DNA of 64,000 bases from Hadesarchaea archaeon. Its GTDB lineage: Archaea; Hadarchaeota; Hadarchaeia; Hadarchaeales; WYZ-LMO6. Each line of letters begins with the position of its first letter. Position 1 is the stretch's first letter. The notes under the pieces are model-generated. The model saw only the letters and a program-made list of their open reading frames with translations, did not search any database and was not told the DNA's origin. Below are positions 6,302 through 58,621 of the stretch, piece after piece. Made by a program: the position numbers and the translations under genes. Location: the NCBI GenBank assembly GCA_029259185.1, contig JAPDJF010000003.1, positions 14,875 through 78,874 on the forward strand. The letters are read 5' to 3'.

Positions 6302-6302
6302 C

Positions 6303-7271
6303 TCATCTCCATCCCCCTTTTACATTGAAAGCTCTGATGGTTCCATATAAACCGACATCTACGCCCAAGGGTGTGAGGATTATCGTTGGGGTCTTGTTGT
6401 AGGCGTGGGCTCTCACCCACTTCCGGATGAAGGGTAGGATCAACTTTGAATTTCTTAGCGCAATGCTCCCTCCTACGGTCATCAATGATGGGTCGAAGAT
6501 CTCTACCAGATCGGTAAACCCTATTCCGTTGAATTTCCCCAGCTCCCTTACCAGTTCGAGTGAGAGCCTATCCCCCCGTCTAGCACATTCGAAGAGAAGT
6601 TTGGCATCAAGTTTGGAGAGATTTTTGCCACCGAGCTCGAACAGCTTGCTTTTCGTTTCCCTACCCTCTCTGATCCTCCACTTCACGAACTTCGGTATCC
6701 CAGCTCCCGAACAGTACGCCTCCCAGTGTCCCTTTTTCCCACATCCACACCTCAGCGATCCGGTAGGGTCTACGGTGAGATGTCCTATCTCGACAGCGTT
6801 TCCATCTTTCCCTTCAAGTAGGTGCCCGTCGACATACGCTCCCCCACCTATCCCCGTTCCCATCCCCACATAAACTAGATCCTCTACTCTTCTTCCAGCC
6901 CCGAACTCCCGTTCTCCAATCGCAGCAACCGTGCAGTCGTTCATCAGTAAAACAGGGATCCCGAACTCTTCCTCCAAGGGTTTGACGATCGGAATCCGCT
7001 CGAATGGAAAATTAGGTGGATCCCTAAGCTCTCCTCTGTTGAGATCTAGGGGCCCCGCTGAAGCTACGCATATCCCATCCAACTTCTGATGTCTGATACC
7101 AGATCTTTCACATAAGCGAGCAATGATTGAAATTATCTGGTTCGATGGGTCCTTGGGACTGTTCTTTTGTGTTCTTTCGTCGATCCTTTCTAAAAATTTT
7201 TTTCCGTCCGAAAGGGCAGCTCTTAACCTCGTAGCTCCAAGATCTACCCCAACCACGAGCATCGCCACCAC
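6303..7271 (-). CDS. ROK-family sugar kinase (glucokinase-like).
   Basis: N-terminal VGVDLGATRLR. ROK zinc motif GHLTVDP...CGCGKKGHWEAY. Confidence 0.7.
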   Translation of the reverse strand: MVAMLVVGVDLGATRLRAALSDGKKFLERIDERTQKNSPKDPSNQIISIIARLCERSGIRHQKLDGICVASAGPLDLNRGELRDPPNFPFERIPIVKPLEEEFGIPVLLMNDCTVAAIGEREFGAGRRVEDLVYVGMGTGIGGGAYVDGHLLEGKDGNAVEIGHLTVDPTGSLRCGCGKKGHWEAYCSGAGIPKFVKWRIREGRETKSKLFELGGKNLSKLDAKLLFECARRGDRLSLELVRELGKFNGIGFTDLVEIFDPSLMTVGGSIALRNSKLILPFIRKWVRAHAYNKTPTIILTPLGVDVGLYGTIRAFNVKGGWR

Positions 7272-7432
7272 CCGCTGGCACCCTACCCTATGCTGGGTTT
7301 TCCCCTTTATAAACGATCCCGACCAAAGGGGGGAACGGATTCCATTCCGTTAGCGATGGTCAATGATAACATCATTTTGTGGTGTTTACTCTTGGGTGTC
7401 TCTGGAAAGTTTAGTCGTCTGATCGGGTTTGT

Positions 7433-8143
7433 CTACAAGAAGCTATCCAGCCCCTTGGGCCTCGGTATCCCAGTCACGTATATTCCCTTTCTCGCGGGAA
7501 GGGAGACATTTACTACAAGGGTTCTCCCCATCATCACCTCGAGTTCGGAGGCTCTGTGTGCGTGGGCGTGAATCCAGAGATCCGGTTGTCTTCGCATGAT
7601 GACCTCCTCCAGTTTTCTGTTCCCTATTTCTGGCCATGCCTTCGGATTCTCCCCTTTGATGGTCGTATAGGTTGGAGCGTAGTGGGTCAACACGAGTTTA
7701 ACATCCGAGTTCAGCTTCTTCAACGATTCATCAATGATTTTTACCCTTTTCCGATACAGCTCTCGGATTCCCCGAATGTGGGTCCTTTGCCAAAAAGTTG
7801 GGCGGGCAAGGGATCCTTGGGAGCCAACGATACCGATTCTGAGTCCTTCTACCTCCAAGGTGAGAGAATCATCATCGATCCAACAGATTTCCTTGAACTC
7901 CATGTACTTTTCTCGGTCTTGAAGATATTCCTCGTTTCCAAAACATGCGAGGATTTTTCCTCCGTAGACTTCCCTCACGGCACTGAAAACAGTCTGCAGT
8001 TGAGCACGGTCGTTTTTAAGAACAATGTCTCCCGCGAACAGGAAGAGATCCACCTCGCCTACTCCCTTTAGAGCCTCCACAAACATCTCAAGGTACTTAG
8101 GTGAGTGAACATCCCCCACGGCTGCTATTCTTATCGTCTTCAA
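7433..8143 (-). CDS. Metallophosphoesterase (calcineurin-like phosphoesterase).
   Basis: Motifs AVGDVHS, AGDIV, GNEE and THYAP are typical of the MPP superfamily. Confidence 0.65.
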   Translation of the reverse strand: MKTIRIAAVGDVHSPKYLEMFVEALKGVGEVDLFLFAGDIVLKNDRAQLQTVFSAVREVYGGKILACFGNEEYLQDREKYMEFKEICWIDDDSLTLEVEGLRIGIVGSQGSLARPTFWQRTHIRGIRELYRKRVKIIDESLKKLNSDVKLVLTHYAPTYTTIKGENPKAWPEIGNRKLEEVIMRRQPDLWIHAHAHRASELEVMMGRTLVVNVSLPARKGIYVTGIPRPKGLDSFL

Positions 8144-8224
8144 GTTTCTCCAGAGACGGTCTCATTTATCGTTTTAAAAAATTAAAGACTGCGCGGTCGA
8201 ACTCAAGCAGCTGGTTGGGATCCA

Positions 8225-8485
8225 TCACTCCAAGTGGGTATCAAAAGCCGTTAGGGTAACCGTCTTGCGAACGTGTGGGAGTTTCCTTATCTCGATAATT
8301 GCTTTGTCTATATCCCCATAATTCCCCTCAAGAACGCATACCACATCATACTCCCCGTGAACGAAGTCCGCCTGGCTCACGTTCGGCATCTTCTGGATCT
8401 TGGGTATCACTGCTACTTCGTGCCCGGGCTCAACTTCCATCAGCACATAGGCCCGCTTTTTGAATGCTGCTAGCCCTTCTGCCAC
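8225..8485 (-). CDS. Stand-alone Lrp/AsnC C-terminal (RAM) domain protein.
   Basis: 86 aa. Resembles the ligand-binding domain of Lrp (VLMEVEPGHEVAV...VVCVLEG). Confidence 0.45.
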   Translation of the reverse strand: MAEGLAAFKKRAYVLMEVEPGHEVAVIPKIQKMPNVSQADFVHGEYDVVCVLEGNYGDIDKAIIEIRKLPHVRKTVTLTAFDTHLE

Positions 8486-8597
8486 TTTGTCACCACCCTA
8501 ACTCACCCACGGGGTTTTTAAACCCTATCGGTTTGGTTTGGCGTGTAATTAGAACGGACCCTCAATGTTTTTTTAACTTCCCGACCTTCTTTTCTTA

Positions 8598-11306
8598 ATG
8601 TGTTGTGAGTTCGACAAAAGTTTGAAAGTGCCTAAAGAGTACGATCCACACACCGTTGAACCGAAGTGGCAGAAGAAATGGGAGGAAATGGGTATCTACC
8701 GGTTCAACCCCCAGGATCGGGAGAGGCCAACTTATGTTATAGACACACCCCCCCCATACCCGAGCGGTGAGTTTCACCTCGGAACAGCTTTGAATTGGAC
8801 GTACATGGACATAGTGGCCCGATACAAGCGAATGCGGGGATATAACGTTTTGTTTCCCCAGGGGTGGGATTGTCATGGGTTGCCCACTGAAGTCCAAGTG
8901 GAGAGGAAATACGGTATCCGCAAGGGAGATCTCCCCCCCCAACGATTTCGTGAGCTGTGCGTGAAGCTGACGGAAGAAAACATAAAGCGGATGAAAGAAG
9001 AAATGCTTTCCTTAGGATTTTCGATCGATTGGACGACCGAGTACAAGACCATGGATCCGGAATACTTCTCAAAGACTCAGCTTTCATTCATTCGCTTGTA
9101 TAGGGATGGACTGATCTATCGTGGAGAACATCCTGTGAACTGGTGCCCGAGGTGTGAGACTGCAATAGCGGATGCTGAGGTTGAGTACGAGGAGAGGGAG
9201 GGGAGATTGAACTACCTAAAGTTCAGGATCCAAGGGAAGGATGAACACCTCATAATCGCAACAACACGGCCAGAGTTCTTACCGGCATGTGTGGCCGTGG
9301 CCGTGCATCCAGCCGATCGAAGGTACGAGAGGTACGTGGGAGAAAGAGTGGAGGTCCCCGCCTCCGGGCATGTGGTCGAGATTATAGCCGACCCCGAAGT
9401 CGACCCAGAATTCGGGACGGGGATAGTGATGATATGCACCTACGGGGATAAAACGGATGTACGCTGGGTGGCCAAACACAAGCTTCCTGTGATCAAACTC
9501 TTGGACGAGCGTGGAAGGATGACCGAGGTTGCTGGAAAGTATAAGGGTCTTGATATCGAGGGATGCAGGAGGGCCATACTCACGGATCTCAAGAGAGCGG
9601 GTTTGCTCGAAAGGGAAGAAAAGATATCTCAAAGCGTGGGGGTCTGCTGGAGATGTAAGACACCAGTTGAGATCTTGACAAAAAAACAGTGGTTTATGAG
9701 GGTTCTGGATGTCAAAGAGAGGGTCATAGAGGGGGCGAATCGTGTGAGGTGGGTCCCTGCACACATGAAACAGCGAATGATAAACTGGATCGAGTCCATG
9801 GATTGGGACTGGGTGATATCCAGACAGAGGGTATTCGCCACACCGATTCCCGTGTGGTATTGCAAGAGGTGTGGTGAGACCGTGGTTGCCGAGGAAGATC
9901 AGCTTCCGGTGGATCCGACCAAAAGCAGACCTAAGGTGGAGAAATGTCCGAAGTGTGGGGGGGAGGAATTCGAGGGGGAGCACGACGTGTTGGATACATG
10001 GATGGACAGTTCGATAACTGTAGCCGTCCATGCGGGCTGGCCAAACTTAAATCCTCGCCTCTTTCCGGCCGATCTCCAGCCGAACGGAACCGATATCATA
10101 AGGACATGGGACTATTACCTTTTAGTTCGACACTTAGCGCTTCTTAATGAGATCCCGTATCGAACTGTACTCATAAACGGAATGGTGTTCGGTGAGGATG
10201 GGCGCAAAATGTCGAAGTCTTTGGGCAACTTCATCGAGACGGCATCCGTTTATAAGAAATATGGGGCTGACGCTCTCCGACAGTGGAGCGCCCTCGGAGC
10301 CTCTACGGGCTCGGACGTACCCTTCTCTTGGAAAGAAATAATCTTTGGAAGGAGGTTTCTCCAGAAATTCTGGAACGCTGCGAGATTCGCGGGGCCACAC
10401 ATATCCAAAGCTGTGGAGCTCAGCCCCCGAAGATTGAGATTCAAACTATCTGATCGATGGATCCTGAGTAGGCTCAACCGAGTGATCGAGCGAGTGACGT
10501 CTTTCCTCGAAGAATTTCAGTTTAATCGGGCACTCATCACTATCCAGTCCTTCGTATGGCATGAGTTCTGTGATCAGTACATCGAGGAAGTTAAGTACAG
10601 GATCTATGAGGGGGGAGAAGATTCGGACGCAGCGAGGTATGCCCTGCGCGAGGTTATCTCGAAAGTATCCAAGTTGCTGGCACCATTCACACCCCACCTT
10701 TCGGAGGAGGTTTATCATACCTATCTCCGAGATGAGGGGTATCCAAGTGTGCATCTCGCACCTTGGCCTGAGCCTGACTTCGACATGATAGATGAAGAGG
10801 CGGAAAAAGCGGGTGAGGTACTGAATGCAGTGCTGAGTTCAATTCGGCAGTTCAAATCATCTAAAGGGCTTCCCCTCAGTCACGAGCTTGGAGAACTCAG
10901 AATCTTCACACCTCACAAATGGGTAACTGAAGTGCTTGAAGAAGCGAGGGACGACTTAGTCAATACGGGGCACGTGAAGAAACTTGTTGTGTCTACCGGT
11001 AGGCCAGAGCTAGAGGAGAGAGTGATATCGGTAGAACCCAACCTTTCGAAACTTGGACCGAAGCTACGCTCGCACGCTAAGCGTGTTATTGACTTTTTGA
11101 GGAAAACAGACGTCGGGGAGATCGTCAGACGCATCGAGAGGGGTCCCTTAACACTGGACGTCGAGGGCGCAAGGGTCGAAATAAGCCCTGAGGAGCTCGT
11201 CGTGAAGAAAGAAGTGGTATCCAAGAACGGGGCCGCTGATGTCGTTCGGGTAACTGATCCTGAGATGACCCTTCTCGTTTGGGTAGGATCATCCTCTGAC
11301 ACTTGA
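8598..11306 (+). CDS. valS: Valyl-tRNA synthetase.
   Basis: About 900 aa class I aaRS. It has PYPSGEFHLG (a HIGH-like motif), KMSKS (MSKSLGNF), editing-domain Cys clusters and a C-terminal coiled coil, in the archaeal ValRS arrangement. Confidence 0.85.
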   Translation: MCCEFDKSLKVPKEYDPHTVEPKWQKKWEEMGIYRFNPQDRERPTYVIDTPPPYPSGEFHLGTALNWTYMDIVARYKRMRGYNVLFPQGWDCHGLPTEVQVERKYGIRKGDLPPQRFRELCVKLTEENIKRMKEEMLSLGFSIDWTTEYKTMDPEYFSKTQLSFIRLYRDGLIYRGEHPVNWCPRCETAIADAEVEYEEREGRLNYLKFRIQGKDEHLIIATTRPEFLPACVAVAVHPADRRYERYVGERVEVPASGHVVEIIADPEVDPEFGTGIVMICTYGDKTDVRWVAKHKLPVIKLLDERGRMTEVAGKYKGLDIEGCRRAILTDLKRAGLLEREEKISQSVGVCWRCKTPVEILTKKQWFMRVLDVKERVIEGANRVRWVPAHMKQRMINWIESMDWDWVISRQRVFATPIPVWYCKRCGETVVAEEDQLPVDPTKSRPKVEKCPKCGGEEFEGEHDVLDTWMDSSITVAVHAGWPNLNPRLFPADLQPNGTDIIRTWDYYLLVRHLALLNEIPYRTVLINGMVFGEDGRKMSKSLGNFIETASVYKKYGADALRQWSALGASTGSDVPFSWKEIIFGRRFLQKFWNAARFAGPHISKAVELSPRRLRFKLSDRWILSRLNRVIERVTSFLEEFQFNRALITIQSFVWHEFCDQYIEEVKYRIYEGGEDSDAARYALREVISKVSKLLAPFTPHLSEEVYHTYLRDEGYPSVHLAPWPEPDFDMIDEEAEKAGEVLNAVLSSIRQFKSSKGLPLSHELGELRIFTPHKWVTEVLEEARDDLVNTGHVKKLVVSTGRPELEERVISVEPNLSKLGPKLRSHAKRVIDFLRKTDVGEIVRRIERGPLTLDVEGARVEISPEELVVKKEVVSKNGAADVVRVTDPEMTLLVWVGSSSDT

Positions 11307-13892: not shown

Positions 13893-13976
13893 GGGTTTAA
13901 TTCCTTTTCTGAAATTTCTTATTTATTTTTTGTTTCCAGTTTTTGCTTTATCACAATTTCTGGAATATTTTAGAGC

Positions 13977-14160
13977 GGAATCGAGCGAGAAACCCCGCGC
14001 GCTTTAGCCGTGGGGTGAATGCGTGCCGAGGGCCGATTCCGCAATAGCTAACGGCCCGAGCGAACGCCCGGAGACCAAGACCCCCGTAACCCCCCTTCCA
14101 AGGGGGATCGAGCCTGGTCGTCGAAGCATGAAGCCACCGCTTTAGCGGTGCGGTAGTTCA
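13977..14160 (+). repeat. Repeat F, copy 1 (about 185 nt; hairpin-rich; other copies at 35552-35730 and 48487-48675).
   Basis: Near-identical blocks (gaatcgagcgagaaaccccgcg(c)gctttagc(c)gtgggg...ggccgattccgcaatagctaacggccc...ccgtaacc...gggggatcgagcc...ccgctttagcggtgcggtag) in all three copies. Confidence 0.5.
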
Positions 14161-15681
14161 TCTCCTTGCAGGTCTCTCGAACTTTCGGAGTTCAATTACC
14201 TCCACCCTCACGTTTGCCTTCGAGCAAGTTTCTACAAGCGAACTACCCCATCTCTTGGGATCGTTAAAGAGTAAAACCCTGCGATACATCTTTCCGTACC
14301 TTAAGAGATATTCCGAAAGCGATTCACACACCGTGTTAATCTGTGCTTCATCCAGCTCTTTTGGAACCACCACTTGGCCTAAGGGATAAAAATCCTCTAG
14401 CTCCTCGGGGACTACCCCGAATGGTGGCACGAGTCTCACCACGTGAATAGATTCAAGGTTCTCCAACATTACCTTGCGTTTCTCAAAGGATGGCAACAAA
14501 ACCAGAGTTTCGGCCGATGGGGGCTTATATCTCCTCATCCTAGATCGGTGTCGGAGAACCTCCGGACGTCTCACAGCCTCAGAACCGAGATAATCGAACG
14601 CCGAGGGTTTTGTGACGGGATCGAATCGCTCTATGAATTCGGTGTAGTTCATGAGTCTCCTGAGTCCCTCGAGTAGCTTGGGGTGAGATCTGCACTTTAG
14701 CTCAACGTATTCCCACAACCTCCCCTCGACTATCGCCTGTCTTATCCTTCGGATCTCCCCAAAGAGAACATGCAGGTTGTGTCGAGCCAGAACTCTGATC
14801 CTCTCGTCGGTTGGGGCTTCCTTCAGTTCTCCCACCGAATATCCAGTGCAGACCGGACACTCACACGGGAGGAAGGCGAGGTCCTCAAGTTTCAGGGTTT
14901 TCTCGTGGGTAAGATACCGACCGTCTCTTGCGTACAGTATGTATGAGGCTGAATCGAAGAGGTCACAGCCCATGAGCACCAACATCGATAGAACCATTGG
15001 GTGTCCAGCTCCGAAGAGATGGACTGGTCGATCTAGGGGAAGGTGCATTTTGGCGGTCATCACCAAATCGACGATGTCAGTGTACGCATATCCCTCCAAG
15101 AATTCGACAGGGCTACCGATCGCGTGGATATGGTAGTCCATCGTACCCATCCTCCGGGCACACTCAGCGACCAAATCCAAATATTTCCCCCCTTGGACGG
15201 GAGCACACCAAATCGTTTCTGGATTCGATCTGAAACGTGTTGCTCGTTCAGCACGCTCCACTGTCGCCCTAACCGTTTCCAGCGCATGATTCCTCGAAGC
15301 CGCTGCTCCGGTCGGGACATCCAAAATGGTCGCGATGTCTGAACCTATCGAATCTTGGTACTTCACCACTTCGTCAGGATCAGCATCGATTTCTCCGTAT
15401 CGAAGGATTTGATACCCTCCGGAATCGGTAGCGATGGGGCCGTTGTAGTCCAGCATCTCGTGGACTTCTCCGTCTCCAAACTTCTTCATCAAAAAATAAG
15501 CATTAGTCATAATCAAACTCTCTTTGAATTCTCGCTTGATCTCAGATGGTTTGATGATGAGGTTGGATGGATCGACTACGGGCATTAGAGCGGGGGTGAG
15601 CACTCGTCCATGTCCGGTTCTCAGTTCGCCTGTTCTACCCATCCCATCCCGGTGGATTATTCGAAAAAATCCTCTTGACAT
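14158..15681 (-). CDS. tgtA: Archaeosine tRNA-guanine transglycosylase (ArcTGT, TIM barrel plus C-terminal PUA).
   Basis: 507 aa. TGT signature (DSGGYQ, zinc CxCxxC ... LFGAGHP) and C-terminal extension domains. Confidence 0.8.
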   Translation of the reverse strand: MSRGFFRIIHRDGMGRTGELRTGHGRVLTPALMPVVDPSNLIIKPSEIKREFKESLIMTNAYFLMKKFGDGEVHEMLDYNGPIATDSGGYQILRYGEIDADPDEVVKYQDSIGSDIATILDVPTGAAASRNHALETVRATVERAERATRFRSNPETIWCAPVQGGKYLDLVAECARRMGTMDYHIHAIGSPVEFLEGYAYTDIVDLVMTAKMHLPLDRPVHLFGAGHPMVLSMLVLMGCDLFDSASYILYARDGRYLTHEKTLKLEDLAFLPCECPVCTGYSVGELKEAPTDERIRVLARHNLHVLFGEIRRIRQAIVEGRLWEYVELKCRSHPKLLEGLRRLMNYTEFIERFDPVTKPSAFDYLGSEAVRRPEVLRHRSRMRRYKPPSAETLVLLPSFEKRKVMLENLESIHVVRLVPPFGVVPEELEDFYPLGQVVVPKELDEAQINTVCESLSEYLLRYGKMYRRVLLFNDPKRWGSSLVETCSKANVRVEVIELRKFERPARR

Positions 15682-18849: not shown

Positions 18850-20012
18850 TGAGAAGGGTAGCCTTGGTCGGGGTCGGTCAGACCAAATTCGGAGAGCTGT
18901 GGGACACATCTTTTAGACAGATGATAATCGAGGCTGGGACGAGGGCCATCGAGGATGCGGGGATGGAGGGTGAGAAAATAGGAGCGATGTACGTGGGGAA
19001 CATGTCGGCTGGGCAGTTCATCCATCAGGAGCACATAGCCTCCCTCATAGCCGATCACTCAGGACTAGCACCCATCCCTTGCACGAGGATCGAGGCTGCG
19101 TGTGCTTCGGGGGGGCTGGCGTTACGGGAGGCGATGATTGCAGTTGGCTCTGGGATTCATGATATCGTGGTCGCCGCTGGAATAGAGAAGATGACCGATG
19201 TGATTGCGGAACAGAGTCTCGAAGCACTAGCCACGGTTTCTGATCAAGAGTGGGAAGCTTTCGTTGGTGCGACATTTCCGGCCCTTTTCGCCCTGATGGC
19301 CCGCAGGCACATGCACGAATTTGGGACCACGGAGGAACAGATGGCGTTGGTAGCAGTGAAGAATCACCATAACGCTCGTCTCAACGCATACGCTCAGCAT
19401 CACATCGAGATAACCGTTGACCAAGTTCTGCAGTCGCCGCCCATATGCTCACCATTGAAAATGCTCGAATGCGCATCGATCACCGATGGTGCCGCGTGCG
19501 TGATCCTTGCCCCGTTGGAGGAGGCGAGGAAGTACACGGATACTCCCATAGAGATAGTGGGAGCAGGACAGGCTAGCGATACCATAGCACTCCATGATCG
19601 TCAATCGCTCGTGAACCTTCGCTCAACCCGTGAGGCAGCTAAGGCAGCCTACCAAATGGCGGGCTTGCGCCCGGAGGACGTAGATCTGGCTGAGGTACAG
19701 GATAGTACCACCATCTCAGAGATAATAGCTATCGAAGACCTTGGTTTTTGCAAGAAGGGTGAAGGAGGGAAGGTCACCGAGGACGGCATGACAGCCATAG
19801 ATGGAGCACTTCCCATAAATCCAAGCGGAGGTTTGAAGGGGAAGGGCCATCCCATAGGGGCTACCGGCATATCCCAGGCGGTTGAAATAGCACTTCAGCT
19901 CCGGGGGGAAGCGGGAAAGAGGCAGGTGAAGAATGCTGAGATAGGGTTGACCCACAACATAGGTGGAAGTGGGGGGACGGCAGTAGTTCACATATTCAGG
20001 AGGCAAGATTAA
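18849..20012 (+). CDS. Acetyl-CoA C-acetyltransferase (thiolase).
   Basis: [21 protein letters not shown] and a C-terminal GHPIGATG motif. 1-nt overlap with HMGCS. Confidence 0.85.
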
Positions 20013-35515: not shown

Positions 35516-35551
35516 ATTCGACCTGGGAAAATTGATGATGAAGCTTTAGAA

Positions 35552-35730
35552 CGGAATCGAGCGAGAAACCCCGCACTTTAGCGTGGGGTGAATGCGTGCC
35601 GAGGTCCGATTCCGCAATAGCTAACGGCCCGAGCGAACACCTGGAGATCAATACCTCCGTAACCCCCTTCCATGGGTGATCGAGCCTAGTCGTCGAGGAG
35701 GAAGCCCCGCTTCAGCGGTGCGGTAGTCCA
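35552..35730 (+). repeat. Repeat F, copy 2.
   Basis: See F copy 1. The first hairpin has compensatory changes (ccccgcactttagcgtgggg). Confidence 0.5.
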
Positions 35731-35850
35731 CTGTCTTAGTAACCTCAAACCCGTACCTCGAACGAGTGGGCCCCCCGGATTTTGGGTATACCGGAAAATG
35801 GGCCTTAGATTTGACCACAAGTATTTAAAAGGTCTTGAGGAAGAGGGAAG

Positions 35851-44154: not shown

Positions 44155-44799
44155 CTACAAAAAGTACTCCTTTATGAATTCAAAATTTCTTTTAGTCTTT
44201 TCCGCCCCTTTGACCACGCCACCGTGGCCTGGGAGCAGGTAGTGAATATCCAACTCGGAAACCCTTCTTATGGAGTCCTTCAATTTCTCCAGATCACCGC
44301 CTGGAAAGTCTGTGCGACCCACACCACCCTCGAACAGGAGATCCCCGCACATCAGTAACTTCAGTTCCTCACAGTAAAAGCTCACACTCCCGGGTGTGTG
44401 ACCGGGAGTGTGAATCACCACGAATTTCATTTTTCCCCCCAGTTTGTCCTCCAAAAAAATATCAACATCGAACTTCGGCATCTCCATTCCGAAGTACCCA
44501 GCGAACTCCATACTGAATGAGAGGTGTTCTAATTCCTCACGGTGCATCGCTATCTTAGCCCCTGAGAGGGTCTGAAGTGCACGGTTGGCCCCGCAGTGAT
44601 CGGGGTGGCTGTGGGTGTTCGCTATTAGGTCTATTTCTCTGATATCGAAACCATCGTTTTCCATCTCCGATAAGCGCTGACTCAAATATCTTGGATTTCC
44701 GGGATCGATGAGCACGCAAGGATTGTTGTCTATCAAGTAGGTGTTGCAGTCACCGATAGCTTTCTCGGGATACCAATAGACATTTTTGACCAGTTTCAT
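44155..44799 (-). CDS. MBL-fold metallo-hydrolase (glyoxalase II-like).
   Basis: THSHPDHCG (HxHxDH) motif. The probable start is MKLVKNV at 44799. Confidence 0.7.
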   Translation of the reverse strand: MKLVKNVYWYPEKAIGDCNTYLIDNNPCVLIDPGNPRYLSQRLSEMENDGFDIREIDLIANTHSHPDHCGANRALQTLSGAKIAMHREELEHLSFSMEFAGYFGMEMPKFDVDIFLEDKLGGKMKFVVIHTPGHTPGSVSFYCEELKLLMCGDLLFEGGVGRTDFPGGDLEKLKDSIRRVSELDIHYLLPGHGGVVKGAEKTKRNFEFIKEYFL

Positions 44800-45627
44800 C
44801 TCGACCACCGCGAGGAGACCCCGTCCGAAAGGGCTGGGAGATTTTTAGGTGAAAATGCGCGTGCGATCTTTGAAGACAGTCCAGCAGGGAGAAACGGCTT
44901 GGATGTGGGCCGGATACCCGAAAACCCGAATAAGCTTGTACAGAAATTCTTTCTGGCTCCGCGGATAGCTTTGCAGGAGCCATGAGTTCCTCCGCTACCT
45001 GACACTCTCTACCACCATTCTCGCTTTGTTTGAACACATACCGTAGAGCCTGCTAGAGAAGCTGGCGACGACGGAGGGGAGATCTCCGACTAACTCCTCG
45101 TGGGGAGTTCGTTCTTCTCGTTCATTTACCACTTCTATTCGAGCGCCGAGATCCTCAGCGTGATTTTTCAAATACTCAAAGCCAAAGCGGGTGAGGCGAT
45201 CTTTCCACGCAACGATCACGGTATCGGCCTCGCCAGCCCTAAGCATCTCGAACACTTTTTTCAACCCCCGTCGGTTCTCGAAAGTCGCAACCACTCGTAT
45301 CGCTTGCCCCTCGCGTATTCCTGAAGCATTCGTTTTTGACGTTTCAAATCTTCTTTCTGATCTACTGAGGAAACCCGTGCGTAGGCGATAGCCCGATTTT
45401 TTGGGACTCGTTGACCGAGCAACCGTTTGATTCCGCTCTCTGGGATACGATACCTTTTGGCCGCAGCCTGATGGCCTTGACCCTGCCCGCGTAAATCCAG
45501 CGCTTTATGGTGATGAACGAAATCTCCAAGAGCTTGGCCGCTTGCCCCGGTGGGCAGAGTTTTTCCCCTCGCATGTTCACCTGGGATATAAAAGGATATT
45601 TTAGGTAGCAGTTACATCACCTTCGAC
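44800..45627 (+). mobile_element. Chimeric/degenerate IS: an IS200/605-type left end (shared with the 1911 and 46852 copies) followed by an inverted, frameshifted IS607-type tnpA. The right boundary is approximate.
   Basis: Left-end identity (ctcgaccaccgcgaggagaccccg...gtgaaaatgc) and the block gagaaacggcttggatgtgg.ccggatacccgaaaacccgaata shared with copy A. Inserted 3' of TTCAT (44795-44799). Confidence 0.45.
44995..45580 (-). pseudogene. tnpA: IS607-family tnpA (MerR-like HTH plus serine-recombinase catalytic domain), disrupted by at least two frameshifts.
   Basis: Three minus-strand frames carry consecutive TnpA blocks: HTH (AAKLLEISFITIKRWIYAGRVKAIRL), the active-site region (AIAYARVSSVDQKEDLKRQ) and RGLKKVFEMLRAGEADTVIVAWKDRLTRFGFEYL. 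Confidence 0.6.
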
Positions 45628-46056: not shown

Positions 46057-46851
46057 CTATCCACTTGAAGCCGCTCTCTCCACCACTTCACTTAGCTCTG
46101 TCATTTTCTCTAGAATTCTCTCACCCCCCTCCGCATCGAATACAGAGACTCCCTTGAGTTCAGCTCTAGCCACACTTTCTTCGTATGGGATAGAGTATAT
46201 GGGAGGAACCCCAATTTTTTGGAGCTTCGTTGAAATGAATTCATTTTCTCTATCACGATATTTGTTTATTACCCCGAATATCTTGGTTATCCCTAGATCC
46301 TCTCCAAGCTTTTTTATCCGTCCAGCTGTTTCGATGGACCTCAGGCTCGGTTCCACCACTGTCAGGAGGATCTCCACTTTTCTCGTCGTTCCCCTTCCAA
46401 GATGTTCCACTCCAGCTTCCATGTCTAGGAGTAAAACATCAGCGACGCCTGAGAGGTGATCCACGAGTCTCCTCGCCAAGGCATTAGCTGGACAGAAACA
46501 ACCCTGTCCCCCCCTTCTGATTCTTCCAACGATAAGGAGTTTAACGCCATCCTTGCATTGGACTCCGAACTTATCTAATAAATCATCGACTTTCGGATTT
46601 AATTTGAAGATCAGTCCATATCCTTCAGGTGGTGCTCCGGTTCTCTCTTCGATGAGGGAGTCTCTCTCCATCAAAGGGATCAGTTTTCTTTCCGGAACTT
46701 CCCCACCAACTCCTAAGGCCGTGATGAGATTCGGGGAAGGATCGACATCCAGTGCAATGACTTTTTTCCCCCTTCTAGCGTAGGCTCTGGATAGTCCTGC
46801 GGCGATCGTTGTCTTTCCAACACCACCTTTTCCCGTTATGGCGATCTTCAT
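46057..46851 (-). CDS. cooC: CooC/AcsF-type Ni-insertion ATPase (MinD/ParA fold) for CO dehydrogenase/ACDS maturation.
   Basis: Walker A GKGGVGKTT plus the CooC-specific CxC motif (GQGCFCPANA). The probable start is MKIAITG at 46851. Confidence 0.7.
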   Translation of the reverse strand: MKIAITGKGGVGKTTIAAGLSRAYARRGKKVIALDVDPSPNLITALGVGGEVPERKLIPLMERDSLIEERTGAPPEGYGLIFKLNPKVDDLLDKFGVQCKDGVKLLIVGRIRRGGQGCFCPANALARRLVDHLSGVADVLLLDMEAGVEHLGRGTTRKVEILLTVVEPSLRSIETAGRIKKLGEDLGITKIFGVINKYRDRENEFISTKLQKIGVPPIYSIPYEESVARAELKGVSVFDAEGGERILEKMTELSEVVERAASSG

Positions 46852-47777
46852 CTCGACCACCGCGAGGAGACCCCGACCTTTTGAGGCGGGGAGGAACTGC
46901 GGGGGGGTTTTAAGTGAAAATGCATATACGCTGTTCTGATGAGGCTCGCCAAGACCGTCGCGTGCAGGCTTGAGCTCAGCGACGAGGAACGGCATAAGCT
47001 CCTCGCACGCTCCAGGCTTTTCGGGATGCCTGCAACCACATCTCCAAGATCGCCTTCGAGCGCAGGGTGTTCAACCCCGTCGCCCTGCACCACATGGTTT
47101 ACAGAGATACCAGGGCCAAATTCGGCCTGCCTGCGAACCTCGCAATCCGCGCCAGGGATCGGGTGGCCAAAGCATACAAGCAAAGGCGGAACAGGCTCCT
47201 CCGGTTCGACAAGCTCTCGCTCGACCTCGACGCTAGGCTCTTCCGTGTGTTCGAGAAGCCCGACGGGTGGCACGCCTCCATCGCAACGGTTCAGAAGCGG
47301 ATCAAGCCCCCGCTCAAAATAGGCGAATACCAGCGGAAACTGCTCGAGGGTGTCAAGCCGACCCACGCCGTGCTCACCTACAAGAACAAGCGGTTCTTCC
47401 TGCACGTCACCGTCGAGCGAGAAGTCCCGGAGCCAAAAGGAGATAACCCAGCCGCTGTTGATGCGGGAATGAACAATTTGCTCGTCGCTTCCAACGGCTT
47501 CAAGGTCAGGGGCAAAGGTATCCTCAAACGAAGACAGCACTTTCGAGCCTTGCGCTCCTCCCTCCAAGCCAAAGGCAAGCCGTCTGCCAAGCGCGGGCTG
47601 AAACGGCTCGGCTCGAAGGAGGGGAGATGGGTTGCTCGCGTGAACTTGGAGCGGAGAGCCGGCTCTCCCTCCATGGGCCGCCCCGTCAACCGGCCCTATG
47701 CGGGTTTGAGTGTCTTCGGACATGATGATCACCCTGCAAGCCCATCCTTTAGGGAAGGGTAGTTGACCTTCTTAACC
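46852..47777 (+). mobile_element. Degenerate IS200/605-family (TnpB-only type) element. It consists of a left end, a tnpB pseudogene with an internal deletion, and a right end.
   Basis: The left end is shared with 44800 and the right end with 2040-2132. Inserted 3' of TTCAT (46847-46851), which overlaps the cooC start. Confidence 0.6.
46939..47762 (+). pseudogene. tnpB: tnpB (IS605 OrfB family) remnant. N-terminal part only, with one frameshift near 47010 and a deletion of the RuvC/zinc-finger C-terminal region.
   Basis: MRLAKTVACRLELSDEERHKLLAR, then after a frame change TLQAFRDACNHISKIAFERRVFNPVALHHMVYRDTRAKFGLPANLAIRARDRVAKAYK...AAVDAGMNNLLVASNG...KRLGSKEGRWVARVN. The remnant then runs directly into the right end. 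Confidence 0.6.
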
Positions 47778-47804
47778 AAATACTTTAAGAACTCAAAACT
47801 GTTA

Positions 47805-48050
47805 CGTTCACTTTCCCTCGCGCTTCGCGGAAGCTTTCCCCGCTTTAGCGGTGCTCTAGCCCCTGCTTCATCCACCGACCCGATCCCATCCCCCTTCGGG
47901 CGGTTACGGAGATCCAATGTCCATCCTACCCGCGTCGTGGAGGTTTACAGGCGTTGGGTTCGGGGTGGCCCTCTCCACCTCCCGGAAGATTTTCGGCTCT
48001 CATCCCCAGCTCTCGCAGGGAACTTTCCGCTGACAGAATTAAAATAGGAG
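47805..48050 (+). repeat. Repeat D, copy 1 (about 245 nt; candidate structured RNA/MITE; the inverted copy is at 56912-57185).
   Basis: Four long conserved blocks match the inverted copy. They are separated by two variable insertions (19 vs 28 nt and 1 vs 24 nt). Confidence 0.5.
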
Positions 48051-48485: not shown

Positions 48486-48486
48486 G

Positions 48487-48675
48487 TGAACTACCGCACC
48501 GCTAAGGCGGTGGGCCTCTTGCTTCAACGATGAGGCTCGATCCCCCTTGGAAGGACGGGTTACGGAGGTCTTGACCTCACGGGCGTTCGTTCGGGCCGTT
48601 AGCTATTGCGGAATCGGCCCTCGGCACGCATTCGCCCCACGGCTAAAGCGCGCGGGGTTTCGATCCCGTTCTAAA
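48487..48675 (-). repeat. Repeat F, copy 3 (reverse orientation).
   Basis: The reverse complement aligns along its full length to F copies 1 and 2. Confidence 0.5.
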
Positions 48676-48859
48676 TTTTCGATCCGGAGTCCTTTAGCCT
48701 TTTTTTGGAAATCTTTCTAACCTCTTCCCACTCTTTCATTGATTCTAATTTTTTCTTCTTTCGAAAAGCCTCCATTATTTTGTTTTCTTCCATGGCTACT
48801 TCAATATCCCCACTTTCACATCCCAACTACATCACCATCCTCCTTTTTCCTAGACTCTT

Positions 48860-53639: not shown

Positions 53640-55663
53640 TCGACTACGTGCCCACCATCTGTCCGTACTGCGGGTGCGGGTGTGGTATGTACTTGGTGGT
53701 GAAAGAGGGGAGGATAGTGGGTGTGGAGCCATGGAAGGAACATCCAGTGAGTGAAGGAAAGCTGTGTCCAAAAGGGAGGAATTCTTACGAGTTCCTGTAC
53801 AGCCATGATAGATTGAAAAAACCATTGGTACGTCGGGGAGATAGACTTGTGGAAGGATCTTGGGAGGATGCGCTTCGCCGAGTGGTCAACGAGTTCAGAG
53901 ATACCTCTCCAGAGGATTTTGGAATTCTCGCATCGGGAAAGACAACAAATGAGGAGAGCTATGTGTTGCAGAAGTTCGGGAGGGTAGTTATAGGAACCAA
54001 CAACATAGACTACTGTGCTAGGTTCTGTCACGCAACCACGGTTGGTGGGTTGGGGCCCACCTTAGGTTCTGGAGTGATGGCATCTTCCGTGCTAGACTAC
54101 GAGCTTCCCGATTGTTTTTTGATAGCCGGGGTGAATGTTCAGGAGACATTCCCTGCTATCGCGAGACGCATCAAAAGGGCAAAAGAACGTGGGGCAAAGA
54201 TAATAGTTATCGACCCCCGGAAGACGCTTACGGCTAAGCTTTATGCAGATATACATCTCCAACTCTTTCCGGGAACCGATGTTGCACTCATAAATGGGAT
54301 GATGCGCGTGATACTGGATGAGGGACTTGAAAACGGAGAGTTCATCGAGAAGAGAACCAAAGGTTTTGAGGAGCTCAAAGAATACTTGCTCAGCATCGAT
54401 CTCAAAGAAGTGGAAGAAACCACGAACGTCTCGCTAGATGAAATCAAAAAGGCGGCTGAAACATATGCCGGGGCAAAAACCGGTAGCATCCTTTACGATG
54501 AGGGGATCACGGAGTACACGACGGGAGCGGAGAAAATAACCGCGTTGGCCGACTTAGCTTTGCTTACCGGACACGTGGGTAAGCCGGGTGCGGGCGTGAA
54601 TCCGATGAGGGGGCAAATAAATGGAGAAGGCACAGGAGACATGGGGTGTTTCCCGGTGTTCTATCCCGGGTTCAAGCCTCTAACCGAGCAGACATTCGAA
54701 TTTTTCAGGGACGTCTGGAATGTTGAGTCAATTCCCGAGAAAGCAGGCAAGACCGTTATGGAGATGCTCGAGGACTGCAAAAAACTCTACATCGTGGGTT
54801 TTAATCCCATGGTCTCTGCGCCCCACGTCACTCGGGTAAAGGAATTGTTGGAGCAGAAAGAGTTCGTGGTTGTTCAGGACATTTTTCTAACGGAGACCGC
54901 AGCTTTGGCAGATGTTGTCTTACCGAGCGCAGCGTGGGGGGAGAAAATGGGTACACACACATGGACCGATCGAAGGGTTCAACTCGTTAGGAAAGCCGTG
55001 GATCCACCTGGAGAAGCCATTCCCGATTGGCAGATAATCTGCAGGTTAGCTGAGATGATGGGATACGGCGATCACTTCGAATACAAATCTCCACGTGATA
55101 TTTTCGAGGAGATAAGGAGGTGTGTTCCCCAATATAGAGGGATCAGCTATGAAAGATTGGAGAAGAGTTCAGGAGGGATTCAGTGGCCCTGTCCTTCGGA
55201 AGATCATCCAGGGACCTCCACGATGTTCGTGGAGAGATTTAACACCCCTGATGGATTCGGACACTTTGGAGTAGTTCAGTACAGGCCCCCGGCGGAACTT
55301 CCGGATAACGAATATCCGTTCATGCTTACCACGGGGAGGGTGATATTCCATTACCACACCGGCACGATGACGAGGAGAACCGAGAGACTCAGCAACGAAG
55401 TCCCCACGGGTTTTGCCGTGATCCATCCCGAAAATGCTGAGGAGCTCGGGATAATGGATGGGGATGAGATCCTACTTGTCTCAAGACGTGGGAGAGTTAA
55501 AACTTTTGCGAGAGTCTCAAACGAGGTTGCGAGGGGGCTCATATTCATGCCGTTTCATTTCGCCGAACGTGCGGCGAATATCCTGACGAACCCCGTGTTG
55601 GCACCCACTAAGATGCCCGAGTTCAAACTCTGTGCTGTCAGGATCGAGAGGGAGGGCAGTTGA
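53636..55663 (+). CDS. fdhA: Formate dehydrogenase alpha subunit (molybdo/tungstopterin; Cys type).
   Basis: N-terminal 4Fe-4S (CPYCGCGCG...C), the MopB domain and a C-terminal MoCo-binding domain. No in-frame TGA. Confidence 0.85.
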   Translation: MIDYVPTICPYCGCGCGMYLVVKEGRIVGVEPWKEHPVSEGKLCPKGRNSYEFLYSHDRLKKPLVRRGDRLVEGSWEDALRRVVNEFRDTSPEDFGILASGKTTNEESYVLQKFGRVVIGTNNIDYCARFCHATTVGGLGPTLGSGVMASSVLDYELPDCFLIAGVNVQETFPAIARRIKRAKERGAKIIVIDPRKTLTAKLYADIHLQLFPGTDVALINGMMRVILDEGLENGEFIEKRTKGFEELKEYLLSIDLKEVEETTNVSLDEIKKAAETYAGAKTGSILYDEGITEYTTGAEKITALADLALLTGHVGKPGAGVNPMRGQINGEGTGDMGCFPVFYPGFKPLTEQTFEFFRDVWNVESIPEKAGKTVMEMLEDCKKLYIVGFNPMVSAPHVTRVKELLEQKEFVVVQDIFLTETAALADVVLPSAAWGEKMGTHTWTDRRVQLVRKAVDPPGEAIPDWQIICRLAEMMGYGDHFEYKSPRDIFEEIRRCVPQYRGISYERLEKSSGGIQWPCPSEDHPGTSTMFVERFNTPDGFGHFGVVQYRPPAELPDNEYPFMLTTGRVIFHYHTGTMTRRTERLSNEVPTGFAVIHPENAEELGIMDGDEILLVSRRGRVKTFARVSNEVARGLIFMPFHFAERAANILTNPVLAPTKMPEFKLCAVRIEREGS

Positions 55664-56904
55664 TGGAAGGAAGGATGTATCTGGCGATCGCTTCTGACGT
55701 CGAAATGCGAAGGAGGGGGGAATGCGGAGGGGTGGTCACTGCACTGCTCAAGTTCTTGTTAGAGAGCAAAACCGTAAACGCCGTCCTGGCCGTGAAGAAA
55801 AGGGGAAATCGATACGATGGAGTTTCCCAGCTGATCACGGATCCTGAAGAGGTGCTAGAATGTGCTGGATCCCTCCACTGTGTTTCTCCTAACATAGCCA
55901 AGAATTTGAAGAATTATCTCGATGGGGCTCAAAACATGAAGATAGCCGTGGTGTGTAAACCATGTGATGCTCGTGCGATCGTGGAGCTGACCAAGCGAGA
56001 ACAAGTGAACTTCGAGAACCTCATCCTAATAGGTGTTAACTGCACGGGTATCTTCCCTCCCAATATCGCGAAAAGAATGTTGGTGGAGGAATATGGTGTA
56101 GATCCTTCTGAAGTGGTCAGGGAGGACATAGATGGGAAAAATCTGATCATCACGCTTAGGGATGGATCCAGGAGGATGAGGGATCTGGAGGAGTTGGAGA
56201 GGAAGGGATATGGGAGAAGAGCGAATTGCAAGAGATGTGATGTGAAGATCCCGCGGATGGCCGATTTGGCATGCGGGAAGTGGGGAGCGGAGAAGGAAGA
56301 TCAGACATTCGTAGAAGTCTGTAGCGAAAGGGGAGCGGAAATACTGGAGAACGCCGTGAAATCAGGATACGTGATCGTGGAGCCTCCCAGCAGAGAGGCC
56401 ATCGAAGAAAGAAAAAGAAAAGAAACTGAGGCTATCGAGTTTGCCAGAAAGGAAAGAAGGGAGGAGTTTGCCGAGATAGAGAAGATGAATCTTGAAGAGA
56501 GATTCAAGTATTGGAACGGGTATTTGGAGAGATGTGTAAAGTGTTTTGGGTGTAGGGACGTTTGTCCGATATGCTATTGCAGGGAATGTTATCTGGAAGC
56601 AGATCGTGGGCTTGTGAAACCCGGGCGGATTCCCCCCGAGCGAATGTTTCCACTCGTTCGGATAGCTCACGTAGCAGACTCATGTGTTAACTGCGGTCAG
56701 TGTGAGGACGCATGCCCGATGGAGATTCCGATATCTAAGTTATGTTCCATGTTAAACCAATATCTCAGTTCGATGTTTAGGTACATCCCCGGAATGGATC
56801 CTAGGGAGAAACCACCCCTTACCATGGTAACGGATGGGGAGTTCTCTGTTGAGGACATCGATCTCTTCTTTAATCTTAAGTTCGTGTCTGGTAAACCGAG
56901 TTGA
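55660..56904 (+). CDS. fdhB: Formate dehydrogenase beta subunit (F420-reducing FdhB/FrhB family).
   Basis: FrhB-like N-terminal domain plus C-terminal 2x[4Fe-4S] (CVKCFGCRDVCPIC ... CVNCGQCEDACP). 4-nt overlap with fdhA. Confidence 0.8.
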   Translation: MMEGRMYLAIASDVEMRRRGECGGVVTALLKFLLESKTVNAVLAVKKRGNRYDGVSQLITDPEEVLECAGSLHCVSPNIAKNLKNYLDGAQNMKIAVVCKPCDARAIVELTKREQVNFENLILIGVNCTGIFPPNIAKRMLVEEYGVDPSEVVREDIDGKNLIITLRDGSRRMRDLEELERKGYGRRANCKRCDVKIPRMADLACGKWGAEKEDQTFVEVCSERGAEILENAVKSGYVIVEPPSREAIEERKRKETEAIEFARKERREEFAEIEKMNLEERFKYWNGYLERCVKCFGCRDVCPICYCRECYLEADRGLVKPGRIPPERMFPLVRIAHVADSCVNCGQCEDACPMEIPISKLCSMLNQYLSSMFRYIPGMDPREKPPLTMVTDGEFSVEDIDLFFNLKFVSGKPS

Positions 56905-56911
56905 ATCCGGG

Positions 56912-57185
56912 TTTTAACTCTGTCGGCGGGAAGTTCCCTGCGAGAGCTGGGGATGAGAGCCGAAAACCATGTTATTTCCCCTCCAATTTCTTCCGGGAGG
57001 TGGAGAGGGCCACCCCGAACCCAACGCCTTGGAAAACCGATGACCTGCACAGCGCAGGTAGGATGGACATTGGATCTCCGTAACCGCCCGAAGGGGGATG
57101 GGATCGGGTCGGTGGATGAAGCAGGGGCTAGAGCACGCTAAAGCGGGGAAAGCTTCCGCGAAGCGCGAGGGAAAAGCGGAAGCCC
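56912..57185 (-). repeat. Repeat D, copy 2 (inverted relative to copy 1), in the convergent fdhB/cdhE intergenic region.
   Basis: Its reverse complement aligns to 47805-48050. Confidence 0.5.
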
Positions 57186-57214
57186 CCTGCAAAAGCGAGG
57201 GGAGGAGGTCACGC

Positions 57215-58621
57215 TTATTTCCACTTTTCGGCAAGAAACTTTGGGATCCCGGAGGAATCTCTGGGGCCTATGAGAACCTCCCACTCGAAGTTAAGCAGTT
57301 CCTCCAGTTCGCCTTTGTAGCGAGCGGCCATACCGGGTAGGATGACTTTTCGATGCTTTACTTTTTCTTTAACCCCAGATTCCTTGATGGCTTCCGCTAT
57401 TTTCTCGGCCGTCAGTTTTCTTCCCGCTATCGCCGATTCCACACTTATCCCTTCAGTATCGACAACGATCAGATAGGAAGGTACCTTGGAGGATTCTATA
57501 TCACTCACCACCGTGAAGTAGGTCAGGGCGAAATTAGATGTTACCATGATGGGAGAGTTCTCGCCCACGTCTCCAATAGTTCTCATCCCAGGATCCACGC
57601 TTACAGGCTTTCTCGGATCCGTGTATATGTTTTCCCTCAGGATCACTTGGGGCAGAAGAACCCACATCTCGTCGGATTTCAGTATGAGCAGGTCGGCGTA
57701 TCTCACCATCAATATAGTTGCGAGTGAGGTTTCCATCCACATGTTTGCTTCCGACGTTTTTCCCCCGTCTTCCCAGACTCTCAGAGGAGTTCCGACTAGT
57801 GGAAATCCGACTAGTTCATCCCCGCCTTTTATGGCCGTGTTTCTCAATGCCGTGAAGTTATTTATGGTTTCCTTTATTTTTTCCCCGAAGCTAGCTCCCG
57901 GATCCAGCAGGATGTCTTCGATCCCATAAGCTAGTATCGTTTTGGTTAAGGACTTGAGCATTTTCAGGTTCCCGGGGGAATAAATCGTGAGAGGACACCC
58001 ATACTTCGAGGCGAGTTCTGCCATCCCTTTCCAGTTATCCTCGGTAGCGGCATACAACAACGGCTTTCTTTCGGAAACCGTGCTCAGTGCACGCTCCATT
58101 GTTTTTGGATCCATACACCAGAGGATCAAGGGGAGCTTAGTCATCGATGCTTTCTTCACAGCTCTCTCGAATTTTTCAGGATCATTCGTTACACACCGAA
58201 CAGCTATCATGTCGAGCTTGAGGGTCTTCCCTATGTATGTATATCCAAATTCCTCCACTCTTTTGATTCTTTTCAGGATGTCGATTTCGGACATGTCGTC
58301 ATCGACCGTGATCGCTATCGGCACGGGATTGAAATATCGATACTCATGTCTTCTAACCACGAGTTGACCACCCACCTTCACTTGACTTTCTCCAGTACCT
58401 ATGGTGACCTCCTTAACGGGAGGCTTGAGCATCTCTTGCAGCTTTTGGAGGCTCGCCTTGTACTTATCTTCAAAGAGCTCAGGGCACTCCTCGATCGAAA
58501 TTGTTCGCTCAGCCAGCCTAGCCGCGAAGGCCATACAAACACCGGGTTCACATTTGCCACAGTTGGTCTTCGGCAAAAGCGCGTATATGTCCAAAGGTCC
58601 TATCTTCTTCTTGGCGGCCAA
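57215..58621 (-). CDS. cdhE: Acetyl-CoA decarbonylase/synthase gamma subunit (corrinoid Fe-S protein large subunit).
   Basis: N-terminal CGKCEPGVC 4Fe-4S motif, a TIM-barrel/pterin-binding-like domain and a length of 468 aa. Confidence 0.85.
   Translation of the reverse strand: MAAKKKIGPLDIYALLPKTNCGKCEPGVCMAFAARLAERTISIEECPELFEDKYKASLQKLQEMLKPPVKEVTIGTGESQVKVGGQLVVRRHEYRYFNPVPIAITVDDDMSEIDILKRIKRVEEFGYTYIGKTLKLDMIAVRCVTNDPEKFERAVKKASMTKLPLILWCMDPKTMERALSTVSERKPLLYAATEDNWKGMAELASKYGCPLTIYSPGNLKMLKSLTKTILAYGIEDILLDPGASFGEKIKETINNFTALRNTAIKGGDELVGFPLVGTPLRVWEDGGKTSEANMWMETSLATILMVRYADLLILKSDEMWVLLPQVILRENIYTDPRKPVSVDPGMRTIGDVGENSPIMVTSNFALTYFTVVSDIESSKVPSYLIVVDTEGISVESAIAGRKLTAEKIAEAIKESGVKEKVKHRKVILPGMAARYKGELEELLNFEWEVLIGPRDSSGIPKFLAEKWK

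Follow-up and report, generated by a model that had tools for sequence, protein, structure and literature searches.

A dispersed intergenic repeat of an uncultured Hadarchaeales archaeon is probably a PATE-like, gene-less derivative of IS200/IS605 insertion sequences

The 64,000-nucleotide window analyzed here (positions 14,875 to 78,874 of contig JAPDJF010000003.1, Hadesarchaea archaeon assembly GCA_029259185.1) carries two copies of an intergenic repeat, family D, and a third copy lies elsewhere in the same organism. Family D is quite probably a new family of non-autonomous, gene-less derivatives of IS200/IS605 insertion sequences (IS), similar to the elements known as PATEs, in this uncultured Hadarchaeales archaeon. 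Read on its putative active (top) strand, the full element runs from the base after a TTTA to a terminal TCAC, with a palindrome beginning 19 nt in and a similar palindrome, in direct orientation, ending 10 nt before the right edge. We infer this from the dispersed copies, the anatomy of their ends, the conformity of these ends to the guide/cleavage pairing rule of IS608, and the lack of a conserved open reading frame (ORF), of terminal inverted repeats and of target duplications. This top strand (window plus for copy 2, minus for copy 1) is the reverse of the orientation in which the copies were originally described; the latter is referred to below as the opposite strand.

Copies 1 and 2 align in four blocks (47812-48044 on the plus strand against 56912-57174 on the minus strand) of 94, 55, 41 and 39 nt, with identities of 96%, 95%, 100% and 100% respectively, far above chance. 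The original prediction of two near-identical copies sharing four long blocks is borne out by repeat search and pairwise alignment. Copy 3 is located upstream of aroA′ on the three long ENA contigs L017-L019 (~9558-9836) and on L007, the single contig matched by an exact scan of the JGI metagenomes with the invariant 19-mer; all derive from the same organism. The three loci have unrelated flanks, with copy 1 upstream of nikR, copy 2 between cdhE and fdhB, and copy 3 upstream of aroA′. Copy 2 does fill the convergent gap between fdhB (55660-56904, plus strand) and cdhE (57215-58621, minus strand), as had been proposed. No further copy turned up in the window, in the ~40 kb of other sequence covered for this organism, at four loci of a related species whose AroA′ is 82% identical, or in the surroundings of related tnpB genes. 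Family D is also absent from viral contigs (two exact-word scans) and from plasmids and phages (blastn). An exact 20-mer scan of a genome collection returned only a chance match, in a Terriglobia metagenome-assembled genome, and this 20-mer varies between the copies. Across the public genome, metagenome, viral, plasmid and phage collections no match was found outside this organism.

Copies 2 and 3 are full-length. They share a segment, GTGACCTCCTCCC...GGGGGCTTCC, that copy 1 lacks; on the 5′ side of the opposite strand the extra sequence reads GTGACCTCCTCCC...GCAGGGGGGCTTCC. The complete element therefore reaches 57212 and copy 1 is truncated at this point, so that copy 2 is ~27 nt longer than its original delimitation. 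Copy 2 spans 296 nt (56917-57212, plus strand), its edges being set by the end of homology with copy 3 (L017-L019) and copy 1. Copy 1 (47806-48039, minus strand) keeps the left end, with TTTA at 48040-48043 and the left guide tetranucleotide and hairpin at 48004-48024. It has neither the right hairpin nor the TCAC end, and its homology to copies 2 and 3 stops after ...GGGAAAGTGAAC (47806). Judged by its sequence, copy 1 is an immobile relic that has lost its right end.

The copies differ internally by a few sharply bounded modules. A 22-nt insert, AATTGGAGGGGAAATAACATGG (56967-56988, plus strand), occurs in the window's copy 2 and in the copy 1 of a second strain, whereas the window's copy 1 and copy 3 lack it at identical boundaries. 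A 9-nt indel, ATCGGTTTT (57033-57041, plus strand), adjoins a cluster of substitutions and, together with a hypervariable short palindrome (57044-57058), makes up a variable region at 57033-57058. Both of these indels had been recognized at the outset as cleanly delimited differences, but a third, of 1 nt (GCGGTGC versus GCGTGC), had not been listed. The peptide DLRNRPKGDGIGSVDEAGARA, earlier taken from spurious ORFs as a sign of the repeat, is indeed encoded in ORFs 47729-47917 (minus strand) and 56953-57141 (plus strand).

Directly 5′ of copy 2 is TTTA (56913-56916, plus strand), the putative left cleavage and target tetranucleotide (C_L), which resembles a target-adjacent motif. TTTA followed by A at the junction is conserved at all three loci, and the distance from TTTA to the foot of the left hairpin is exactly 19 nt in copies 1 and 2. 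The left subterminal region (56932-56952, plus strand) contains AGTT (56932-56935), which resembles a left guide tetranucleotide (G_L), and an imperfect palindrome, CCCTGC-GAGA-GC(T)GGGG (56936-56952), identified by DNA folding; taken alone, this left hairpin is weak (z = -1.0). The right end (57179-57212, plus strand) is organized similarly, with a right guide tetranucleotide (G_R) GAAG at 57179-57182, a palindrome CCCC(C)TGC-AAAA-GC(G)AGGGG (~57184-57202; DNA fold z = -2.6), and a 10-nt tail, AGGAGGTCAC, between the hairpin and the element end, which closes with the right cleavage tetranucleotide (C_R) TCAC at 57209-57212. The two terminal 55-nt segments are direct repeats of each other (z = 4.3-5.9, p <= 0.001 in three versions of the element) with the pattern GGAAG(TT/CC)CCCTGC(G/A)A(G/A)AGC.(T/A)GGGGA(T/G)GAG, and each of them forms an imperfect palindrome when folded as single-stranded DNA. 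A search of 56890-57235 found no terminal inverted repeats, and the inverted comparison of the 55-nt ends gave z <= 0.9 in three versions. No target duplication is present at the flanks of copy 2 (CCGGGTTTTA on the left, GCTTATTT on the right) or of copy 3 (ACCGGTTTA and TTAATTAT).

In IS608, the left cleavage site is situated 19 nt 5′ of the left hairpin foot and the right site 10 nt 3′ of the right foot (PMC3201880). Each cleavage site is recognized by base pairing with a guide tetranucleotide located 5′ of the hairpin (AAAG with TTAC, GAAT with TCAA; PMC5934647), in the pattern G1:C2, G2:C1 and G4:C4 (PMC5934647, PMC3201880). The corresponding tetranucleotides, that before the hairpin and that at the terminus, were compared for 17 right ends: nine of RE1-type elements or genuine tnpB genes, five of a second gene-less family, RE2, and three of D. 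Hairpin feet were set by motif-anchored extraction, those assigned automatically by RNAfold being inconsistent. The G1:C2 pair holds in 17/17 ends and covaries between CAAG/TGAC (8 ends) and GAAG/TCAC (9 ends), while G2:C1 and G4:C4 each hold in 16/17. The D right end (GAAG/TCAC) satisfies all three pairs, and at its left end (AGTT/TTTA) two of the pairs are Watson-Crick and the third is G.T. In the genuine IS that neighbors copy 1, the left end, with TCAT followed after 19 nt by the hairpin, satisfies 3/3 pairs (GAGA/TCAT).

The D right end also resembles those of TnpB elements at the sequence level. The last 40 nt (...GGAAG-CCCCCTGC-AAAA-GCGAGGGG-AGGAGGTCAC), which are delimited independently by the end of the likeness between copies 2 and 3, align end to end with eight RE1 and RE2 ends at z = 2.7-5.0, and their mean score exceeds that of 6000/6000 40-mers drawn at random from the window. 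When the comparison is made with the right ends of four full-length tnpB elements found in other metagenomes, one of 10,000 random 40-mers equals the score. The left end resembles IS ends only weakly in sequence (z = 1-2.9), whereas its geometry does match. Within the element, a hairpin (C)CGC-TAAA-GCGG (57136-57148, plus strand) is confined in the window to D and the RE2 mini-elements: its 12-nt core, CCGCTTTAGCGG, has five matches with at most one mismatch (three in RE2, two in D) where 0.18 are expected, and the local alignment of D to the RE2 end is significant (p <= 0.003).

Exact protein matches link the window to several ENA, NCBI, JGI and Logan assemblies, and homologues of a neighboring AroA′ bear Hadarchaeales/Hadesarchaea source names. 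The available contigs represent two strains, one of the window type (identical in L003 and L004) and a second type (L002, L005 and L006), that differ at 0.35% of sites over 20 kb. Family D and the RE2 element downstream of nikR are the sole divergence hotspots between them, at more than 10 times this background. Between strains, copy 1 shows 11 substitutions and 23 gapped columns, and copy 2 shows 12 of each. Where the window's copy 2 has the 22-nt insert, that of the second strain has another one, of 26 nt, and it ends in a module like that of copy 3. This block-wise pattern looks like exchange between paralogous copies and not like drift under constraint. The copy-1 haplotypes were each found again in three independent assemblies. 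Short-read contigs, by comparison, break at D or jump between copies (L015, L016, L021 and L029), and in the chimeric contig L027 the 3′ end of cdhE is connected to the aroA′ flank via D; L005 makes a similar join via RE2. The flank of L007, consisting of RE1 plus 30 nt, is missing from three ENA assemblies of the aroA′ locus and is probably a chimeric join like that of L027. Contig L027, a public megahit contig, begins (1-360) with poly-T and Illumina/Nextera adapter sequence (AATGATACGGCGACCACCGAGATCTACAC...AGATGTGTATAAGAGACAG).

Among known systems, PATEs offer the closest parallel. These gene-less derivatives of IS200/IS605 and IS1341-type elements were first catalogued in Haloquadratum walsbyi (PMC3119063) and are also present in Geobacillus stearothermophilus; they are thought to be mobilized in trans and often carry omega RNAs for TnpB (PMC10055086). 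Like them, D lacks terminal inverted repeats and target duplications, has palindromes near both ends, is too short to encode a transposase, has ends related to those of tnpB elements in the same genome, and clusters with other mobile elements. It differs in that its sequence is unrelated to described PATEs, in its short length (~296 nt) and its Hadarchaeales host, and in that its mobility is putative. In comparison with IS608 and ISDra2, the paradigms of IS200/IS605 peel-and-paste single-strand transposition, D has the same 19-nt and 10-nt spacing between hairpin and cleavage site, and its guide/cleavage pairing follows the same three pairs (PMC3201880, PMC5934647). However, it lacks tnpA and tnpB, uses TTTA/AGTT and TCAC/GAAG in place of TTAC/AAAG and TCAA/GAAT, and forms one left-end pair by G.T wobble. 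The D 3′ end is also like that of TnpB omega RNAs, with xAAG, a GC-rich hairpin with a 4-nt A/T loop and an 8-11-nt tail ending in T(G/C)AC, but D is not adjacent to tnpB and the homology to the internal scaffold is not significant.

What defines a MITE (a miniature transposable element of the inverted-repeat kind) is its terminal inverted repeats, usually together with duplication of the target site. Family D shares with MITEs and modular repeats (Correia/NEMIS, ERIC, BOX, RUP and archaeal SM-type) its small size, non-coding character, intergenic position and multiple copies, as well as variants that differ by indels at fixed internal sites; in contrast, both defining features of MITEs were looked for in D and are absent. 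The early suggestion of a MITE came close: D is probably a dispersed, non-coding, non-autonomous mobile family, but of another class.

If D transposes as IS608 does, a Y1 (HUH) TnpA supplied in trans would bind both hairpins in single-stranded DNA and would cut after TTTA and after TCAC, guided by the AGTT and GAAG tetranucleotides. The excised circle would re-insert 3′ of another TTTA. Resident copies would swap blocks by recombination, giving rise to the cleanly delimited inserts and the mosaic pattern. Like many PATEs, the element may in addition give rise to an omega RNA, a guide for TnpB, with transcription running out through the terminal TCAC.

Several observations weigh against assigning D to the PATE-like elements. 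The left-end pairing requires the G.T wobble, and the left-end variant of copy 3 has a spacer of ~14 nt, 5 nt shorter than the canonical 19. Homology of the whole element to the RE2 family was considered and rejected, being non-significant by nhmmer (no match), by an RE2 covariance model (6.5-7.7 bits) and by colinear alignment (marginal in a shuffle test, z = 2.1-2.75). No empty site or presence/absence polymorphism was seen, every strain examined carrying all three copies; the related species does lack D upstream of aroA′, but the locus is rearranged there. No Y1 transposase (PF01797) is encoded among the called genes of L002, L012 and L017-L019, the remainder of the window not having been screened, and no tnpB with a D-type right end was found. 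Three loci are a small number, and faulty assembly accounts for part of the mosaic pattern of short contigs (L027, L005 and, probably, L007 in its 5′ flank).

The features that D shares with TnpB elements could also reflect a guide-RNA function without transposition, D then being a trans-acting solo omega RNA gene that is kept for a TnpB encoded elsewhere and is not mobile in its own right. The right-end hairpin and tail have the architecture of genuine TnpB right ends, in which they make up the omega-RNA scaffold on its 3′ side. In PATEs, trans-acting omega RNAs are often encoded (PMC10055086), and D has a weak colinear similarity to RE2. However, the RE2 covariance model does not recognize D, and no cognate tnpB was found. 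No tnpB adjoins any D copy and none of the copies overlaps the 3′ coding part of a tnpB. By tblastn, the RE1 mini-element at ~1900-2132 retains a piece of the TnpB C-terminus, but no such piece was found inside D. The conserved left hairpin and its 19-nt geometry are, moreover, a feature of transposase recognition and not of omega RNAs, and we regard an omega RNA gene of this type as unlikely.

A free-standing family of structured non-coding RNA genes, unrelated to transposition and with the inserts as expansion stem-loops, was the reading proposed in the original prediction. In the minimum-free-energy fold of the opposite strand, both inserts do fall within hairpin loops, a few G-U to G-C substitutions preserve pairs, and the copies are located in intergenic DNA. 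Nonetheless, the tests applied to this reading do not support it. An Rfam scan of the window at gathering thresholds returned one tRNA only, and a gathering-threshold scan of the three loci found no family for D. Permissive scans of the three copies gave noise, such as HgcC (RF00062; 15.9 and 9.8 bits versus a gathering score of 50) and RT-3 (RF03068; 15.2 bits versus 40.5). Single sequences fold no more stably than shuffled ones on either strand (z = +0.18 and +0.45). For five distinct copies, the RNAalifold consensus has 67 and 74 pairs on the two strands with no compensatory changes, at least eight broken pairs and a positive covariation term (that is, a penalty), although with only five distinct sequences at 85-97% identity the statistical power is low. 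The hypervariable hairpin (CCTGCGCTGTGCAGG, CCCGCGTCGTGGAGG or CCCGCCTCGTGCAGG) changes without compensation, breaking predicted pairs. The excess divergence of the copies over their flanks between strains is the opposite of purifying selection. A structured RNA would in addition leave the transposon-type ends without explanation, and we consider it a distinctly unlikely account of D.

The weak HgcC match is due to the stretch 57199-57212 in the right tail of D. On the plus strand it consists of a run of purines, GGGGAGGAGGTCAC, that strongly recalls a Shine-Dalgarno sequence. The other strand, GUGACCUCCUCC, is similar to the 3′ terminus of 16S rRNA, and the stretch starts 2 nt after the cdhE stop codon.

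The copies might alternatively be top-strand solo omega-like guide RNAs used by a TnpB, or by a nuclease-dead TnpB-like repressor, encoded elsewhere, to which we assign a very low probability. If this were true, the guide would be the 16-20 nt that follow the terminal TCAC; that of copy 2 would be antisense to the stop-codon region of cdhE and that of copy 3 would correspond to the promoter region of a divergent gene. Family D would then amount to an RNA-guided system with dispersed components, directed at host loci as targets or for their regulation. We know of no such system in this archaeal phylum.

Very improbable, too, is that D is an intergenic repeat of the REP/BOX/ERIC type, spread and homogenized by recombination only and acting as a terminator or promoter cassette, with IS-like ends that are coincidental or relic. 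The modular structure with inserts at fixed sites would suit such a repeat; on the opposite strand, the cdhE stop codon is directly followed by GC-rich hairpins with T-runs behind them, and a TTAAAA box is situated ~30 nt before the nikR ATG. However, in copy 2 this putative promoter box points at the end of fdhB (its 3′ end), so that the copies have no regulatory role in common. The 19-nt and 10-nt geometry, the palindromes in direct subterminal orientation and the pairing of guide with cleavage site, each of them specific to IS200/IS605 elements, also occur together in D.

Least plausible is a small protein, encoded on the opposite strand by an ORF of 29-51 codons that opens in every copy at an ATG (47917; CCAATG with GGAG upstream): although the ORF is open in 7/7 versions, has a Shine-Dalgarno-like GGAG 5 nt upstream and keeps its frame across the 9-nt indel, the frameshifts caused by the 22- and 26-nt inserts give each copy a wholly different C-terminus, the majority of substitutions change the amino acid, and ORFs of this length are expected by chance in DNA of 60% G+C. 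The frames concerned, each with GGAG before the ATG, are 47917-48033 (plus strand) and 56972-57070 (minus strand), and the products, M(S/P)ILPA...GVGFGV...TSRK with unrelated C-termini, are probably spurious. There is no conserved ORF over D, the long ORFs of the two window copies being in different frames, and a six-frame concatenated translation has no homologue among 5.8 billion proteins.

The IS next to copy 1 is an RE1-type IS200/IS605 element (46852-47767, plus strand) with a decayed tnpB. Its ORF (47067-47762) encodes a truncated TnpB, whose full-length homologues are 72-79% identical to it and carry PF01385 and PF07282. The layout is TCAT, 19 nt, GAGA and a hairpin at the left, and CAAG, a hairpin and TAGTTGAC at the right edge. 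The RE1 right end (...GGGTAGTTGAC at 47767) recurs at 2132 and 39980 (minus strand) and in L017 and L018, and matches the sequence directly 3′ of full-length tnpB genes in L008, L010, L030 and L031. The left end adjoins TTCAT, the reverse complement of the ATGAA start of a ParA/CbiA-like gene (46057-46851, minus strand), and from the sequence context the IS is inserted exactly at the ATG of this gene. The 38 nt between the IS right end and copy 1 (47768-47805) are thus displaced native upstream DNA of the ParA/CbiA-like gene. Copy 1 had been described as directly following a TnpB-type right end; it is indeed near one, but the two are 38 nt apart and form no functional junction, their nearness being that of mobile elements in one intergenic region. 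That the IS targets the repeat is ruled out by its position at TTCAT and by the native spacer, and comparison by eye revealed no match of a neighboring omega RNA guide to D.

RE1 left ends abut TTCAT at three window positions (46848-46878, 44796-44826 and ~1911-1928), TCAT in L030 and TTTCAT in L031. The three window cases are start codons, namely those of the ParA-like gene (46057-46851), of a metallo-beta-lactamase-fold gene ending at ~44799 and of a membrane protein gene near 1915. The element lands at the start codon and leaves the ORF unbroken, and automatic ORF calls extend into the IS (312 versus 264 aa). A 99-aa serine recombinase fragment (44995-45294, minus strand; Resolvase domain in the ENA gene call) has as its neighbors omega-like fragments and pieces of an RE1-type left end (44784-44932), an arrangement suggestive of an IS607-type element in decay.

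RE2 is a second gene-less family of ~190 nt with copies at 13968-14161 (plus strand), 35544-35731 (plus strand) and 48486-48676 (minus strand) of the window, at 19705-19897 (minus strand) of L017 and at 254-447 (minus strand) of L012. The copies differ by ~10% from each other. They start with TTTAGA(G/A)CGG and end with a hairpin followed by CGGTAGTTCAC (...GCGGTAGTTCAC), the same type of right end as in TnpB elements; in the copy just downstream of nikR (48486-48676), GAGG precedes the hairpin. RE2 is probably another PATE or solo omega-RNA element. In L017 (19705-19897, minus strand) and L018 (19705-19753, minus strand) the same flank, beginning with GTCAACCATAGAAAC at the junction, is joined to an RE2-type element in one strain and to an RE1-type right end in the other. 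The occurrence of two IS200/IS605-type elements at one site could reflect homing or replacement.

In a related Hadarchaeales species (L023, 9538-10001), aroA′ is located 85 nt downstream of a class-III-signal-peptide gene. In L017, a block of ~5.5 kb (4585-9525) with nine unannotated minus-strand genes is inserted before aroA′, with copy 3 at its aroA′ edge. The tRNA gene at 3034-3130 (plus strand), the sole Rfam match of the window, is 97 nt long, which implies an archaeal intron.

A repeat first put forward as a candidate structured RNA is thus relabelled as a miniature IS200/IS605 element, quite probably, with exact ends, strand, and guide and cleavage tetranucleotides. To our knowledge, the mobile elements of the Hadarchaeales, an uncultured phylum, are essentially undescribed. 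Family D would add a gene-less IS200/IS605 family from this lineage, and elements of this kind are raw material for mining TnpB/omega-RNA systems. The comparison of right ends shows that the IS608 guide/cleavage pairing, together with its 19-nt and 10-nt geometry, holds with covariation in archaeal TnpB elements. The D and RE2 repeats are where metagenome assemblies of this organism break or turn chimeric, and are a source of annotation artefacts; as the only fast-evolving spots between near-identical strains, they are usable as strain markers.

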